Part shown: positions 43,969 to 52,209 of the stretch, in pieces
Layout of the letters: each line of letters starts with the position of its first letter
Numbering within the stretch: position 1 is the stretch's first letter
Origin: an uncultured Nitrospiraceae bacterium
GTDB taxonomy: Bacteria > Nitrospirota > Thermodesulfovibrionia > Thermodesulfovibrionales > Dissulfurispiraceae
DNA: 64,000 nucleotides
Direction: 5' to 3'
NCBI GenBank assembly: GCA_963705105.1
Contig: CAVPIW010000008.1
Location: 48,585 to 112,584, forward strand
Notes under the pieces: generated by a model
What the model was told of the DNA's origin: nothing
Database searches by the model: none
The model's input: the letters and a program-made list of their open reading frames with translations, nothing else
Program-made: the position numbers and the translations under genes

Positions 43969-45062
43969 CTATTTGCCGAGAATGATTTTCAGGAAGACAT
44001 TGCGCGGCGGATGAGCTTCTTTCACGAGGTCGGCCAATTTGCACAGGGCTGCAACGACAACGAACACTGAAAGAGTAATGACGATGAACAGGTAATCCGA
44101 AGAGACCTGCTCCACCCCCGCCAGTGCGAGAAGGGGTTTGAGGCCATACTCGCCGAGAGCCTGATGCGAAATATAGACCAACATGGAGTATTTCCCGAAG
44201 AAGACAGGGATCGCACTCCAGGAGTTATGACTCACTCTGATAAATAGGGCGACCTGAGCGAGAATGGCCCCGGTCGAGAAGAAGGCAAAACCGTATGTGG
44301 GCGGATAGAAAATCTCCGAATATCCTGCGCGACTCGCCAGGATTCCTCTGTTGGTGAGATTGGGGAATGCCGAAGTGGGAACGAACAGGAGGAATGTCCC
44401 GAGAGCGAGAAGGGCCAGTCCGGGAATGGCAAGTCGTGCAATGGAGGGCTGGTTTTCGCCTCGGAACATAAAGCTGAACAGGGAGGCACCGACAAATGCA
44501 TATCCCAGCCAGGGGAACAGGGGGAAATATCCGTCGATGAACCAGCTTGCGGCGAGGCGTGACACATCGGGCACGTACAGACCATCCAGGTCGATTTCCA
44601 GGACTTCGGGATGATAGCCGACGAGAGACTGGAGAAGCGGCCCCCCAGGATAAGGATTGCTCCTGAAGCAATGAGTGACGGCATTTTCTGCTGACGGACT
44701 GCATATATGAGCGGGATGCCGATGCCGATCACGTACAGGACATCCACGCTTGCGAAAGGCAGAAGCCTCCAGACCAGGGTATCCAGAAGAGCCCCTGTCA
44801 GAACGACCAGGGCACCGCGCGTCAGATAATATTTAAAATCGTGCCTTTGTGAACTCAGGATCACCATGCCCGCACTGAGAGAGATGAACGTCGGCGCCGC
44901 GAGGGAGCTCATGATCCGGTACCACATCGCATGGGGCTCAGCGTAATAAGGAGATAGATTTGCCGGAATCATCAGCATGATGGCGATCCCGCGAAGGAAG
45001 TCGACCCAGAGAATGCGATCCTCGCTCCGTGATCTTTCAGGATTGCCGGGGCCCGCGTTCAT
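43969..45062 (-). pseudogene. DUF1624/heparan-alpha-glucosaminide N-acetyltransferase-like membrane protein, frameshifted at G6 tract (44641-44646)
   Basis: N-half D.LRG.AI.LM..AAP.F..G and C-half FPLFPWLG..G.YS..Y..H are in different frames; one added G fuses them. Confidence 0.8.
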
Positions 45063-45095
45063 CGTGTGCGATATGGATACGTTGAAGATGAGTTG

Positions 45096-45309
45096 ACCTT
45101 TCTGTTGCATGAAAAGGCGGGACGAAGCGCCTCAAAGCCTTGCTGAAGGCGACGACACGCATTGTCAGCTTTGTGTTTCAGGAATCCAAACTTTGTGTCA
45201 TCGACCATCTGTTTATAATTCGTCTTTCCTTTCGATACAGGTGTCGCCGCAGCAAGGTTTTCGGCGCATTCACCCCGCCTTTTCGGATGTCTTATTGCAA
45301 CGACAAGGT
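45096..45309 (+). repeat. Rod-like interspersed repeat, short subtype
   Basis: ACCTTTCTGTTGCA...TGCAACGACAAGGT, 214 bp. Confidence 0.92.
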
Positions 45310-46523: not shown

Positions 46524-46608
46524 CTACTGACAGATTATCACATTGTGTGCATTTTGGCAACCTCTTATTCCCGTCAGGGCTCCCCCCCATGATACGTCCC
46601 GGGTTAAA

Positions 46609-48534
46609 CCGAAGTTCCGGTAGGGGGACAAGCTAACCTGTTGTTATTTTGATAGGAAACCATCGAGTTAGGTTTTCTGTACTGGCAACAAGCCCAGCAA
46701 CTGCATAGCTCTCTCCTGTAACGGGCTGTACTCTGTATGCTGAACGAATGTCAGTGCGTCGGGCTGCGATTGTACCCGGCATCGGTTACGGCACCGGGTT
46801 GCCAATTCCGCCAGAAGACTCTGAAAGCTGTGAATCGGAAGACCATCCTCTGTCGTCCGTCTCGTCTTCTTTTTCCGTGCCGACTCCGATGGCTGCGCGG
46901 GAGCCACAGGATCACGCGTGACGCGCAGCTCCTGCAGGTGCTCGTCATCAAACAGCAGCGGAGCGAGCGCCTCCCTCATGTGCCATTCCACATAATAGGC
47001 CAGCATGCACAGAAAGATGTGCGCCCGGACATGATCAGACGTGAAGTGCCGGATGGGCCGGACCAGCAGGTCAACCCCCTTGAGACAGCGGAATGCCCTC
47101 TCCACTTGTGACAGGCCCTTGTACTGCCGTACCGTATCAGCCGCCGACATCTCCTCCGCAGACTCACTGGTGCGGACCACGTAGATCCCGTCCAGCCGCA
47201 TCTCACGCTCGATGGACTCCTCATTCCTCCTGCACTGAAACAGTCCATCCTGGATCGTCAGAGCAAAATGCTTCCCGACCTTGTACCGGTTGATCACCTT
47301 GCCGACCTTCTGTCCAATCTCGCTTGCCGTCAGCGGATGCCTGCTCCTGCGCTGCACCTGCGCAGCGATCTTCTGGAGGTCCCTCTGCGCTGCCTCGATC
47401 AACTCCTGCCTCTTGCGACGACGCTCCTCCGCCAGCAGCGGATTGAAACACGCGATCAAACGCTCACCGGGGTACTCCGGCGAGGTGATCTCCGCAAGGT
47501 TCGTCCGATCAAAAAGCGACAACTGCAGATCCCCCGTGTCCACCAGATCCCGGATCGCCCGGCTCTTCAATGCTGAGATCCAGCCGATCCCCGGATACCC
47601 CTTCAGTACATCAATCCTCGCTTGGGTCAACATTCCCCGGTCCCCGACCAGAATAACCCGGGACAGCCCAAACCGTTGCCGCAGCTTCTGCACCTGATCC
47701 GCAACCGTCGAGGGGTCCCCCGTATCGCCCGGATACACATCGACGGCTACAGGCCTGCCCGCACGGTCCGTCAGAACCCCGTACACAATGATCGGCAAAC
47801 CCCTCTTGTCGTCTCGGTTGTATCCATAGCTGACCAAAGGACACGTGTGCCCCTCGTAATAACTGCTGCTGACGTCATACAGCACCACCGAACCCTCCGT
47901 AAGATGCCGCTTCGCCAGGTTCCTCTCTATGTCCGGCTGCCTCTGGATCAGCCAGTCCAAAGCCCCGTACAGTTCCTCGCTGTCCGCATCCCTCACCGAC
48001 ACCTCCTCGGCCAGCGTGCTGCTGTGCCACAGCCTCGTGGTGGCCAGCTTCGAACAGGGATGGATCAGCCGCTGCGCGATCATCGCCACAACCAGATCAC
48101 GCTGCCGTGAGCGCTCCGGCGCAATCATCGCGTCCAACCCCAGACGTGTGATCGTCCCCAGGATCGCCTCGACGTTGCCGTGCGGCAGGGACCGCTCGAT
48201 ATGAAACAGGTCTTTCGTGCTGATAAGCTCCTCGCCCCGCAGCAGGGCGCGGAGAGTTTCGACTTTCTGCATCGGCCAGTCGGAGATGTTGGCCACGGTG
48301 CGCTTTCTGATCTTCTTGCCCTCTCTCCATGCCTCACGGATGAGGATGGCGGGACGGGAGGTACGGTTCGGGACGATGTCGATGTACATGGTAACAATAA
48401 TAGCATAATGATCATCTATTGTCAAGCATAAAATATATATTACATGGGAACATAGGCAAAGCGCAAACGATCACATCCGCTTGCTCTTCAAGGATTATCC
48501 GGTCGACCTAACTTGTTTTTGGCTGGAACTTCGG
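46609..48534 (-). mobile_element. IS1634-family insertion sequence
   Basis: Terminal IR CCGAAGTTCC (46609) / GGAACTTCGG (48534); flanks GTTAAA/GCTAAA are an imperfect duplication. Confidence 0.88.
46668..48389 (-). CDS. IS1634 family DDE transposase
   Basis: LYDVSSSYYEG, GDRGM, YK.L..VERAFR.LK, VRAHIFLCMLAY; QLSLF clamp-type motif; TTGACA-17-TATTAT promoter 7 nt before ATG. Confidence 0.93.
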   Translation of the reverse strand: MYIDIVPNRTSRPAILIREAWREGKKIRKRTVANISDWPMQKVETLRALLRGEELISTKDLFHIERSLPHGNVEAILGTITRLGLDAMIAPERSRQRDLVVAMIAQRLIHPCSKLATTRLWHSSTLAEEVSVRDADSEELYGALDWLIQRQPDIERNLAKRHLTEGSVVLYDVSSSYYEGHTCPLVSYGYNRDDKRGLPIIVYGVLTDRAGRPVAVDVYPGDTGDPSTVADQVQKLRQRFGLSRVILVGDRGMLTQARIDVLKGYPGIGWISALKSRAIRDLVDTGDLQLSLFDRTNLAEITSPEYPGERLIACFNPLLAEERRRKRQELIEAAQRDLQKIAAQVQRRSRHPLTASEIGQKVGKVINRYKVGKHFALTIQDGLFQCRRNEESIEREMRLDGIYVVRTSESAEEMSAADTVRQYKGLSQVERAFRCLKGVDLLVRPIRHFTSDHVRAHIFLCMLAYYVEWHMREALAPLLFDDEHLQELRVTRDPVAPAQPSESARKKKTRRTTEDGLPIHSFQSLLAELATRCRNRCRVQSQPDALTFVQHTEYSPLQERAMQLLGLLPVQKT

Positions 48535-48688
48535 GCTAAAGGGCAAGTTTCAGCAGGATACCTGTCGCCCGGGACCTGAAGGGTTGTCGGAACGAGGTCG
48601 ACTATAGGCTAGTGCCGCCGCAGTGACGAGGCCGGAGAAAGGTTCTATACGGGACGTGTCCCTGTCCGATTATGAACAATCAGTTGTC

Positions 48689-50086
48689 TTATGAAATTGT
48701 TCTGCCCTGTTCTTGTCGTCGGAGGGCCATCATCCCTGTTATCTGCTCACTTGCTTCCACTGCAGATATGATGAATTGCCTTGTGACATGCGGGGTTTCG
48801 TAGTAGAAGAACTGTTTAAAGTGACGCGGGTAACGCTCAATTAAACTGAGCGTATATTGATCATGACAATACCAAGGGAGTGTCGGTTCGATCAAGTCGA
48901 GATCAGTAACAAGCCTTGCTCCCTCAAAGCCCTCGGATCCGGGGAGCGGAACCAGGGGGATAATCTCGCTGGGCAAGACACCCATATCAAGGAGCTTCTT
49001 ATGCTGCGCGACGGTGGCAATCACCTCGTCTTCCGTTTCCCAAGGGAATCCTATGATTTGTGAACAGGTGATATGAATTCCGATAGCAGCGGCGATTTCG
49101 ATCATGGCCATCGTTCGCTCAACGTCAACGGGCTTCGAGATTCTGTCGAGTGTCTTCTGGCTCGCACTCTCGACACCAACGAAGATATTGACGCAACCCG
49201 CTTCACGCATCTCTTCAAGCTCCTCACGTGATGCATCAGCAATCCTCATGGCGCACGCCCAATCCCATTGTCGACCTGTCAGTCTGATCAGTCTGCAAAG
49301 CTCAGAGACTTCGGCGCTTGGCTTCGCAAAGTTGTCTCCGATCATGAGAAAACGCGTCAGCCCAGTCGCATTGTGCAATCGTTCCATCTCCTCGACGACG
49401 CGTGACGCGGACTTGCGCCGCACTCGCCTATTCCAGAACTGGGTTGTCGAGCAGAATTTGCACCGCCCGTAACAGCCCCGAAGCGCCTCGATTCGCGCAA
49501 AAGCCACATCGCCACTCATTTGTGGGCGGTCACGGAAATCGATGAAGGGAAGCGCGTCAAGATGCGAGATGAGAGTCCGCGGAGTCATCTTGCCCTGACG
49601 CGTCGCCACTCCCTCGATGTTCACCCATTCCTCCGGGGTCCCTCGCCGGTACGCCTTTAACATGGCGAGGAATGACGCCTCTCCCTCGCCAACAACGACG
49701 GCATCAACAAAGGGGAAGTCTTCCAAAGTCTCCGCGTGCAGGAAAGATGCGTGGGGACCTCCAAGTACTATGGACGTGTTCGAGCTCACTGCTCGAATCC
49801 TTTGCGCAACATATAGCATGATTGGCAGCGAGCCGCTGATTGTCATGAGCCCCACCATGTCATACTCAGCCGGATCAAAAAGAGCGCATATTGCCTCGCC
49901 AATCTCTGTTGTTAAAGGGGAGTCATGCAAGTTCGAAAGGCCCTCAAGGTTAAGTACTTCGACGTCATATTGCTCCCCCCGAGCCGCGGACTGCAGGCTG
50001 TACAGCCCAATAGGATGATATGATCGCAAACGCTTCCCTTTGAACGCGGGCGACGGCACCAAGAGAACTCTTATGTCGCTGCTCAT
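48689..50086 (-). CDS. Cobalamin-binding radical SAM protein (class B methyltransferase-like)
   Basis: B12 domain (PIGL..L, LGGPHAS, VVVGEGE), RGCYGRCKFC CxxxCxxC, GVESAS, IIGFPWET. Confidence 0.92.
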   Translation of the reverse strand: MSSDIRVLLVPSPAFKGKRLRSYHPIGLYSLQSAARGEQYDVEVLNLEGLSNLHDSPLTTEIGEAICALFDPAEYDMVGLMTISGSLPIMLYVAQRIRAVSSNTSIVLGGPHASFLHAETLEDFPFVDAVVVGEGEASFLAMLKAYRRGTPEEWVNIEGVATRQGKMTPRTLISHLDALPFIDFRDRPQMSGDVAFARIEALRGCYGRCKFCSTTQFWNRRVRRKSASRVVEEMERLHNATGLTRFLMIGDNFAKPSAEVSELCRLIRLTGRQWDWACAMRIADASREELEEMREAGCVNIFVGVESASQKTLDRISKPVDVERTMAMIEIAAAIGIHITCSQIIGFPWETEDEVIATVAQHKKLLDMGVLPSEIIPLVPLPGSEGFEGARLVTDLDLIEPTLPWYCHDQYTLSLIERYPRHFKQFFYYETPHVTRQFIISAVEASEQITGMMALRRQEQGRTIS

Positions 50087-50145
50087 AGCGCTGAACCCTC
50101 CCTGCGTCCCATGAGCACAGTTAGTTAAGCAAAATATGGTGTACC

Positions 50146-50382
50146 CTACCTGGCCACAAGTTCCTCATAGTGTTGTTGGAATTCCGCCCCGAAGCTCTTC
50201 GCCTCAACGCCGCCTTGCTCATACGCTTCTTTCGCAAGCACAATAGCCCGAAAAAGATCATCGGGCGAGAATGGTTCGCCAACTGCCTTTCTCAGTTCAC
50301 CTATTGCATTGACCAGACGAATGTGCACGTCTGGGTTCGCCAACAGCGCCTCATGCAGCTTCTTCACGCTCTCTGATGCCAT
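50146..50382 (-). CDS. Small protein, candidate Nif11-like RiPP precursor
   Basis: Strong SD AAAGGAGGT; 78 aa directly upstream of the radical SAM gene; GEPFSPDDL and EQGG motifs. Confidence 0.7.
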   Translation of the reverse strand: MASESVKKLHEALLANPDVHIRLVNAIGELRKAVGEPFSPDDLFRAIVLAKEAYEQGGVEAKSFGAEFQQHYEELVAR

Positions 50383-50603
50383 TTCGCACCTCCTTTGGGA
50401 AAAATGCTCATATTACGTATGGAGAGCCCGCACATCTGTGTTCTCCCCATGTCCCTTAAAACAATATGGTGCAGCGCCGGGAAATCCAATCTCGCCGCCC
50501 TGACATTGCGATATTATGAAGGGTCTCGTACAATATAGCAACTCAATCATCAACTTAGAGCCCGGACTTCTTTGTGTCTTTCTCTGTTCCCGGTCAGGCA
50601 CCG

Positions 50604-51782
50604 TTACTTGGTCATTATCTGGATGCTGAAGAGTATCTCATAGAACGGTGTGTCCGGCCTCTTTCTCACGACAGCCAGCGAAGTGAAGGAATCCGTTTCG
50701 GGTATCCTGACGCCGGCGAGCACATGGTGCGCACGCTCATGGACGGGATTGACCTGAATTGTTGCGGACTCTTTTCTCTCGCCCTGTGACGGCTTTTCTC
50801 CCGGCGGGTCCAGGACGAAGGAGAGTTTCTTTTCCTGCGTCGTCTCATGTGAAGCCTGAATGTTGTATATAACCGCTACCTCCACCCGATCAGACTGAGG
50901 ACAACAATGTGTAATATAGAGGTGGATATTTTGCTCCCCTTTCATGAGAACGACTTTGTCCCCCTGTCGCACCTCACCAAAGTCGAAGTACCCGGGTCGC
51001 GTTTCTATTGTCAGCCTCAGCGCGCCGACCCTGGGAGAGCAGCCGCCGAACAGGTTGTCACGATATCCCGTCAATTGAGCACTGTTGTTTGATGTCGTCT
51101 CCTCGGCCACCTCACTGGACGCCGCCACGGCGAAGTAGACTATGCAAACCGATTCAGGCCACTCGATCTCACGCCGACTGGGGACCAGTCGCATCTCCTC
51201 TCCCTGTTCGAGGGAAATAGACTTCTGGAAACTCTTGCCGAATGAAACGTGGGCTCCCTGGAGCCGATCGAGGGCGATGACGTTCAGGGTGACCGGTCCC
51301 TCGAACCGCGATCCCCTGTTCTTCAGAGTAAACCCGATCACGTCGAGGTATTTGCCCTCAAAGAGCCCAAGGGCCTTCAGATCCGTCACCACCAGATCGG
51401 GTTTGGCAGGCGCCTCAATAACACGTACCTGCACGACATCTCTCTCAGAGTAAAGCTTTCCGTCGCTGACCGTCAGCGCAACCACATATGTCCCTTTTTT
51501 CGATGCCAGGAATGTTGCTGTTTTGCCGAACCGGTTTTGAAGGACCTCTTTGCCTGCTCCTTCAGGCGCGGCGAGCAACTCCCAGAGAAAGGAGAGCGAA
51601 TGTCCCTCAGGGTCGAAGCTTCCCGACCCGTCAAGAAAGACCAATTCTCCCGGGAAGCACAGCTGGTCCATACCCCCTTTGGCGATTGGCGGTTTGTTTG
51701 GTCCCGGAACTTCAGCGGCCTGACAGGGGATAATGGACAAGAGCATGAGGATGAGGACGGCGGCAAACAATGTTTTTTTCAC
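50604..51782 (-). CDS. Secreted PKD/CARDB-like domain protein
   Basis: SD AAGGAGG plus GTG, signal peptide, N.PP.A..G.DQ..LDGSGSFDPEG..L.F.W, PDLVV..N.G..E....NN. Confidence 0.8.
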   Translation of the reverse strand: MKKTLFAAVLILMLLSIIPCQAAEVPGPNKPPIAKGGMDQLCFPGELVFLDGSGSFDPEGHSLSFLWELLAAPEGAGKEVLQNRFGKTATFLASKKGTYVVALTVSDGKLYSERDVVQVRVIEAPAKPDLVVTDLKALGLFEGKYLDVIGFTLKNRGSRFEGPVTLNVIALDRLQGAHVSFGKSFQKSISLEQGEEMRLVPSRREIEWPESVCIVYFAVAASSEVAEETTSNNSAQLTGYRDNLFGGCSPRVGALRLTIETRPGYFDFGEVRQGDKVVLMKGEQNIHLYITHCCPQSDRVEVAVIYNIQASHETTQEKKLSFVLDPPGEKPSQGERKESATIQVNPVHERAHHVLAGVRIPETDSFTSLAVVRKRPDTPFYEILFSIQIMTK

Positions 51783-52209
51783 GGATGCCTCCTTGCGGCG
51801 CAGTGGACAGTCATACAAATCGCGGACCCCAAAGGGTTCATTCTCCTATACAGCATCTCCATTCTTACCCCATGTATAACCGATAAGTAGGCGGGTGTCA
51901 ACAGGAAAATATTGTGTCGGGATCCAATGGTCTGGCGTTTGCACTATGTCGGTGGTGCCTAAAGGCGGTCAGCATTGAGATCGACGCATTGTTAGCGAAA
52001 GTCCTGAGGGAAGGGAGGAGACGGCGTAGGGGTAAAATGAAACCTTTAATCGGAAGGCTTCTTGTAAACGCACTTGCTGTACACATTCAAAAGGTGCACT
52101 TCCTCGTATGCAAATAAAACCTCATCAACGAGTGAAGCAACCAAGAATGATATTTTCCGAGGGAACGGCGTGGACGAGGTGAAAAGGACATTTAGGATTT
52201 ACGGGTTAT

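Follow-up and report, generated by a model that had tools for sequence, protein, structure and literature searches.

A rare, conserved gene pair for a small peptide and a B12-binding radical SAM enzyme in an uncultured Nitrospiraceae bacterium: a possible minimal RiPP unit

What is the substrate of a B12-binding radical SAM enzyme whose gene stands directly behind a single small open reading frame? B12 radical SAM enzymes transfer methyl groups to unactivated carbons. According to the excerpted part of a review, most of their sequence clusters lack a known substrate (PMC12931638). We address the question for two genes in the window, the whole 64-kb stretch of DNA (64,000 nt) analysed from an uncultured Nitrospiraceae bacterium (genome G000). 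Since the enzyme clade carries a likely substrate in a two-gene unit, a single co-expression would suffice to test the reaction.

The first gene, P0001 (50146..50382, minus strand), encodes a 78-aa protein of an unnamed family, a likely RiPP precursor with support from homologues and codon-position bias. The second, P0002 (48689..50086, minus strand), encodes a 465-aa B12-binding radical SAM enzyme that is ApyD-like and has no RRE match. The Shine-Dalgarno sequence AAGGAGGT (50388..50395, minus strand) lies 5 nt before the ATG of P0001 and is conserved in the related locus L025, and a Shine-Dalgarno-like AGGGAGGG (50096..50103, minus strand) is located 9 nt before the ATG of P0002, within the 59-nt spacer. 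Codons 2-55 of P0001 differ from those of the L025 homologue by 16, 9 and 33 mismatches at codon positions 1, 2 and 3, respectively, and this third-position bias, together with the conserved Shine-Dalgarno sequence, indicates that P0001 is a real gene under coding constraint. A sigma70-like consensus match (9/12; 50513..50541, minus strand), 130 nt upstream of P0001, is a possible promoter of this gene. No significant hairpin was found in the spacers of the locus, nor was a terminator found there when looked for.

An IS1634 element (46605..48539, minus strand; NF033559, 310 bits) begins 149 nt past the stop codon of P0002 and is context, outside the peptide/enzyme unit. Its limits were set from a second copy, 99.3% identical, on contig C6 of the source genome (C6:620490-622424), and the two nearly identical copies suggest recent activity; a diverged 325-nt piece is present on C7. 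Beyond the element there is nothing but a toxin-antitoxin-like pair (BrnT-like and CopG-like, both under the Pfam cut-off) and unrelated genes, and no peptidase, transporter or tailoring gene is encoded among the scanned ORFs neighbouring P0001 and P0002. These results agree with a preliminary description of the locus, in which a 78-aa ORF with a Shine-Dalgarno sequence was placed 59 nt upstream of a co-oriented B12 radical SAM gene (coordinates, strands, spacing and Shine-Dalgarno sequence were all verified), near IS1634 and a toxin-antitoxin pair and without adjacent peptidase, transporter or tailoring genes. Upstream of P0001 and co-oriented with it is a gene (50604-51818, minus strand) that was not seen near the other loci; its product is a PKD-domain protein of 404 aa that begins like a signal peptide. 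An HGSNAT-like membrane acyltransferase (43969-45110, minus strand) is encoded in two overlapping frames of 292 aa and 201 aa, with a probable frameshift.

The same description had called P0002 a cobalamin (class B) radical SAM enzyme, and its domains bear this out. A B12-binding Rossmann domain (aa 22-141; 49664..50023, minus strand; PF02310, E 2.4e-16, 60 bits against a cut-off of 32) is followed by a radical SAM domain (Pfam Radical_SAM, E 1.7e-21), both above cut-off, with an intact CxxxCxxC motif for the [4Fe-4S] cluster (C205/C209/C212; 49451..49474, minus strand), and it is by this B12-binding and CxxxCxxC architecture that class B enzymes are recognized. The CxxxCxxC motif is present in 19/19 close homologues, and PF02310 was matched in all 19 clade A enzymes. 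A DxHxxG motif is present neither in P0002 nor in any of the 19, and the same holds for base-off, His-off enzymes, TokK and TsrM among them, as described in excerpts of one paper (PMC13331322). The source genome encodes cobS.

The best NCBIfam match of P0002 was ApyD (NF050148), with 194.9 bits over residues 24-451 against a cut-off of 750, while the next best match scored 121 bits; ApyD was also the best NCBIfam match for 6/6 related enzymes scanned. The HMMs of AprD4 and ArsL gave 48 and 66 bits, as compared to 195 bits for ApyD, and TIGR03975 gave 96 bits (cut-off 282). A Pfam search for an RRE/PqqD domain found none in the 19 clade A enzymes, including P0002. The AlphaFold model of P0002 has a pLDDT of 90, and its Foldseek matches are AprD4 (top), MgmA (second), TsrM, CysS and TokK. 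In the excerpted review, AprD4 is said not to bind cobalamin (PMC12931638). Phylogenetic analysis placed P0002 in a clade of two halves with an SH support of 100 (FastTree; 47 of 106 rows), and the clade was recovered with an SH-aLRT of 99 in IQ-TREE (23 of 36 rows), where all figures come from a quick tree. The locus L031 appeared as a sister lineage to this clade in FastTree (support 87), but IQ-TREE gave no support for this placement, which was rejected.

We compared the gene neighbourhoods of the radical SAM homologues. A family peptide is the next gene upstream of the enzyme in 6/6 in-clade loci having upstream DNA, namely the window, L001 and L025 in clade A and L026, L027 and L028 in the sister clade. 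The co-occurring small ORF that the preliminary description had proposed as a check was thus found at every scored locus. The peptide of L028 is cut by the contig end, and the in-clade loci L060 and L091, whose sequence starts within the enzyme gene, were left unscored. A common source and same-size contigs (53,866, 5,717 and 3,500 nt) point indirectly to another three peptide/enzyme pairs. To avoid circularity, HMMs built from one clade only were used in the pairing test. With the clade A-only HMM, the upstream ORFs of L025, L001, L027 (E-value 0.1) and L026 (E-value 2.7) were the top four of 13,503 ORFs from 107 radical SAM loci, and with the clade B-only HMM the top four in the same set were those of L026, L027 (E-value 1e-9), L001 and L025. 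As a control, a small ORF with a Shine-Dalgarno sequence and an ATG start was located directly upstream of the enzyme in 5 of 74 out-of-clade radical SAM loci, as counted by a rough rule that missed L031, whose second precursor has no ATG start.

P0001 and P0002 are thus a rare, conserved gene pair across unrelated bacteria. Homologues occur in a Bacillota MAG, Deltaproteobacteria, Dehalococcoidia and Actinomycetota. No close homologue of P0002 was found in 60 relatives, and searches of 400 same-phylum genomes and of 400 from the phylum of G415 found no P0001-type peptide. The clade enzyme was also sought among 100 G415 relatives and in two further phyla (331 and 87 genomes), with one match, L146, a 689-aa enzyme with a C-terminal extension. 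The best match to the clade enzyme was 32% in plasmids, and the best full-length match in viral contigs was also 32%. The patchy spread of the pair is likely due to horizontal transfer.

The peptide family comprises 32 sequences, aligned from a full HMMER search (3 short homologues), the closest enzyme loci and an alignment search (32 proteins). Three long proteins (P0094, P0095 and P0098, the last a repeat protein) were excluded as chance matches; the 46-aa fragment P0133 was omitted from set A5, and P0131 from set A7. The peptides fall outside all Pfam and NCBIfam models, and HMM-based mining therefore misses the family. Residues 1-47 of P0001 (50242..50382, minus strand) form a conserved, predicted helical leader-like region with the pattern helix, NP, helix, GExF[S/T], helix, as judged from AlphaFold and hhalign. 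The AlphaFold model contains helices at residues 4-15, 17-34 and 40-55, with block pLDDT values of 85-95 over residues 1-50 and a tail of low confidence (pLDDT 55-73). The leader is kept across the family and the tails differ by clade. This is the general RiPP arrangement, in which a small gene is consistently found next to that of a dedicated maturase and encodes a conserved leader and a variable core.

Three types of tail were identified. The clade A peptides (11 sequences that form 10 clusters at 90% identity, with the L025 peptide and P0107 in one cluster) all retain N16-P17, L23 and F68-x-x-H71-Y72. The clade B peptides (20 sequences of 60-62 aa, one of them named from Dehalococcoidia) all end with [VI]TG[IL]. 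The third type is Trp-ended, with VTLTWD in L027 and VTFKW in L028 (38% over 39 aa). A peptide of the highly conserved [VI]TG[IL] family (P0113-P0132) was observed upstream of a sister-clade enzyme at a single locus, L026:381-2167. Fold searches with the P0001 model, which bear on a shared fold with the solved Os1348, gave no clear structural match (best Z 4.2), a PDB sequence search gave a best E-value of 0.076, and the ESM Atlas gave no usable match for P0001, with leads for P0117 all under 0.9. A match of P0001 to OST-HTH/LOTUS (E 0.0014, below cut-off, in 1 of 32 members) was dismissed as chance.

The element F68-x-x-H71-Y72 (50167..50181, minus strand), overlooked in the preliminary description, is invariant in the 11 close homologues and is the likely modification site, as judged from its conservation. 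Long ORFs of the source genome contain F-x-x-H-Y only 45 times in 1.93 million residues. The variant F-W-x-H-Y is found in 6 of the 11 clade A peptides, and the C-terminal residue of P0001 is Arg. Attention had previously been drawn to an EQGG sequence as a double-glycine site whose cleavage would release a Cys-free 20-mer core. The two glycines, G57-G58 (50209..50214, minus strand), are indeed present, but a GG at that distance from the Phe occurs in 1/11 homologues. Double-glycine motifs are usually preceded by hydrophobic residues at positions -4 and -7. In P0001 both positions are Glu. The EQGG is thus probably not a cleavage site, and the 20-mer core is abandoned. A conserved basic cleavage residue was also considered and rejected: Lys or Arg is located 8-9 residues before the Phe in 8/11 peptides, but P0001 has Glu there and a Lys at -6.

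The N-terminal region had been likened by eye to Nif11-type leaders. Membership in the Nif11 family was rejected: none of the 32 peptides matched PF07862, TIGR03798, TIGR03793, NF038399 or PF14407 at E<=1, so that the proposed HMM check against PF07862 came out negative; there is no conserved GG, and no C39 transporter is linked. The source genome contains no match to PF07862 (the control genome was positive) or to NF038399, and its one C39 domain stands alone in a frame of 252 aa on a different contig, with none beside P0001. What stands of the likeness is a distant, clan-level similarity in profile-profile comparisons. With hhalign, the family aligned to five Nif11 sequences at 73% with a 5-residue gap and the leader aligned to 14 Os1348-type precursors at 92.9% (P 3.8e-7, 42 gapless columns), scores that derive from thin alignments; as a reference, Nif11 and Os1348 align to each other at 93.6%. 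In control comparisons, 0/60 and 0/50 column shuffles came near the real score, and none of 62 natural control profiles reached that of the Os1348 comparison (best 17.9, as compared to 37.6). Clade B alone gave 0.6% to Nif11 and 34% to Os1348, and the single-sequence HMM scores of the family against Nif11 or Os1348 did not rise above the top score among about 23,400 background fragments. We suggest that the P0001 leader bears a distant likeness to the NHLP/Nif11 clan, as a divergent member that best fits the Os1348-type precursors. Support for the clan reading comes from L031, where true Os1348-type precursors precede ApyD-like enzymes; the family HMM ranks the two L031 precursors sixth and seventh of 13,503 ORFs. 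Two small ORFs of G000 that topped the leader HMM search are CsbD-like by eye and were taken as chance matches. An identical 59-aa CsbD-like ORF (by eye) occurs twice on contig C12 of this genome, at about 63600-65600 and 77500-79000.

The gene content of the related loci differs. L025 has the same two-gene layout as the window, peptide and enzyme only, while L001 encodes a peptide, two enzymes and a LuxR-type regulator, and two enzymes are also present on the 53,866-nt contig. At L001 and on this contig alike, the two enzymes belong to two different sequence types, the same two in both cases, and the peptide contains F-W-x-H-Y. Counted by eye, P0002 agrees with the first of these types in about 14 of the 19 diagnostic columns, and the second type alone forms a supported clade in IQ-TREE. 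No protease, exporter or MNIO gene was found in the three clade A loci (window, L001 and L025). The clusters with Trp-ended tails (L027:4163-6538 and L028:1-2875) consist of the peptide, a B12 radical SAM enzyme and a trypsin-like protease (PF13365); such a protease is likewise encoded in L060 of the sister clade, and L028 adds a Trp halogenase. By their gene content, these sister-clade clusters look like a fuller RiPP cluster. A search of G000 with the L027 protease as query did not find a protease of this type. The more distant, ApyD-like L031 (845-4611) contains two tandem units, each with an Os1348-type precursor and an enzyme, and these units follow a membrane protein fragment that is M50-peptidase-like by eye.

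Taken with the sequence comparisons, we consider it moderately probable that P0001 and P0002 constitute a minimal RiPP pair and that P0002 C-methylates the F-x-x-H-Y tail of P0001. P0002 would bind the helical leader of P0001, and reductive cleavage of SAM would generate a 5'-deoxyadenosyl radical that abstracts a hydrogen from the tail, probably at a beta-carbon, whereupon methylcobalamin would donate a methyl group to the tail residue (+14 Da). Tyr72 would be the first candidate target by analogy with ApyD, and Phe68 or His71 the next; a second modification may be added at the loci with two enzymes and F-W-x-H-Y tails, and the leader would be removed by a host protease or retained. The earlier proposal of a minimal RiPP-like unit of a peptide and a dedicated class B radical SAM enzyme is upheld by the 6/6 pairing, the conserved leader, the clade-varying tails and ApyD as the best match; tails that change by clade under a constant leader, with Trp-ended tails accompanied by a protease and a halogenase, constitute a RiPP pattern. 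The methylation reading is weakened by an ApyD score far below the cut-off, by the RRE-less enzymes and by AprD4 as the top structural match. It is unlikely, in our judgement, that P0002 of the same RiPP pair instead cross-links the aromatic side chains of F-x-x-H-Y or F-W-x-H-Y into a small macrocycle (-2 Da). Such chemistry would be suited by the three invariant aromatic residues at positions i, i+3 and i+4; the B12 radical SAM enzyme PbsB is described, in the part of the paper available, as making aryl C-C cross-links in biphenomycin-like RiPPs (PMC12257519), and the review excerpt states that no feature separates methylating from non-methylating members of B12 radical SAM enzymes (PMC12931638). 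In that same account, however, PbsB required prior hydroxylation by an MNIO in the precursor tested (PMC12257519), and the three clade A loci have no MNIO gene; the best family match, ApyD, is a methylase. The last 12 residues are free of F, W, Y, H and C in 20/20 clade B tails, so aromatic cross-linking by the sister enzyme is impossible there; this is in line with C-methylation of aliphatic residues and argues for a scaffold that is basically methylating.

It seems to us quite unlikely that P0001 is a folded partner or carrier kept whole, with P0002 acting on another protein or metabolite or methylating intact P0001, which would then function uncut. Such a role is made possible by the protease- and exporter-free clade A loci and by the crystallization of Os1348 as a stable helical homodimer, as reported in the excerpted paper (PMC7726476); F64, F68, H71 and Y72 could also line one face of a helix predicted at low confidence for residues 64-77, and B12 radical SAM enzymes methylate proteins too, with MgmA as the second structural match. 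The complete change of the tail between clades under a constant leader speaks against it, as do the low pLDDT of the P0001 tail and the occurrence of Trp-ended tails with a protease and a Trp halogenase. A horizontally carried remnant of a larger cluster, unproductive here, or non-B12 chemistry of the AprD4/ArsL kind, is highly improbable. The patchy range, with no close enzyme in the 60 relatives and no peptide in the 400 same-phylum genomes, could be taken in its favour, as could the closeness of IS1634 (149 nt downstream of P0002) and, for the non-B12 alternative, the rank of AprD4 in Foldseek. Yet both ORFs are intact with good Shine-Dalgarno sequences, P0001 shows third-position bias, the two-gene layout recurs independently in L025, and past IS1634 there is only the toxin-antitoxin pair and unrelated genes; a non-B12 enzyme fits poorly with HMM scores of 48 (AprD4) and 66 bits (ArsL) against 195 for ApyD, and with PF02310 in 19/19 enzymes. 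A further scheme is conceivable that we regard as doubtful, that of an undescribed RiPP family in uncultured bacteria: an RRE-less ApyD-like clade would directly read a compact three-helix leader of the NHLP clan and would have diversified to act on three unrelated cores. P0002 would then carry out a reaction absent from the literature searched, beta-methylation of His or a His-Tyr or Phe-His cross-link on F-x-x-H-Y, and a second paralogue would modify the extra Trp in the two-enzyme loci.

We also compared the pair with known systems. In aminopyruvatide biosynthesis (NF050148), ApyD, which has an RRE, beta-methylates the penultimate Tyr of its precursor, and a B12 radical SAM enzyme is likewise combined with a RiPP precursor having a Tyr near the C-terminus, as far as the accessible part of the paper describes it (PMC10635010). 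Unlike ApyD, P0002 scores 195 bits (cut-off 750), is about 180 aa shorter and has no RRE match; the locus is without the MNIO, P450 and methyltransferase of the ApyD cluster, and P0001 has neither the C-terminal Asp nor the central Cys motif of that precursor. The Os1348/Franean1_4349 precursors of the NHLP clan (NF038399, PF14407; PMC7726476) match gaplessly over the first 42 residues and, as in L031, can precede ApyD-like enzymes, whereas 0/32 members of the P0001 family match their HMM at E<=1 and the tail motif is unrelated. With the Nif11 precursors (PF07862, TIGR03798) P0001 shares a collinear helix-DP/NP-helix-G-x-F-helix pattern, but it has a 5-residue deletion, no conserved double-glycine and no adjoining C39 transporter. 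The PoyB/PoyC enzymes of proteusins, whose leader is of the NHLP type, and the bottromycin methylases are class B radical SAM enzymes that C-methylate ribosomal peptides. The P0001/P0002 locus differs from these in having no epimerase, YcaO or transporter, a short leader and a TIGR03975 score of 96 bits. PbsB is also a B12 radical SAM enzyme acting on an aromatic, His-containing motif, but its motif is FHAFRF, and the residue that it cross-links is ortho-Tyr, which an MNIO produces (PMC12257519). Clavusporin, with a DUF5825 protein, is a different system as outlined in the excerpt (PMC10849626).

The architecture is thus known RiPP logic, and this familiarity limits the surprise; what is new is the leader, together with the cores and the enzyme clade without an RRE. 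No paper on the peptide family was found in the literature searched, which omits most subscription papers, and a keyword search of the supplement files of PMC11117315, as far as these were accessible, found no mention of it. Methylation of the tail, which is likely, would place the peptides in a family of enzyme-modified peptides with no earlier description. One leader occurs with three kinds of tail, the aromatic FxxHY, the aliphatic [VI]TG[IL] and the Trp-ended one, which offers a direct comparison of how the target changes on one enzyme scaffold, and binding of the leader without a detectable RRE, if true, would be a separate finding.

Small ORFs of other kinds were observed at more distant loci. 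In L029 (7281-9090), a 64-aa ORF that is rich in Lys, contains a GG and has an aromatic/Cys tail is located directly upstream of an ApyD-like radical SAM enzyme (281 bits) and is a candidate for another precursor type, as judged from its sequence. L107 (1465-1701) contains a 78-aa Nif11-like ORF (PF07862 over the cut-off) with no GG and an aromatic-rich WLLRWMHF end. In L037 (5537-9296), L033 and L112, the gene of a longer ApyD-like enzyme follows an ORF whose C-terminal part is rich in Cys, and L037 also encodes a possible diiron enzyme, identified by eye.
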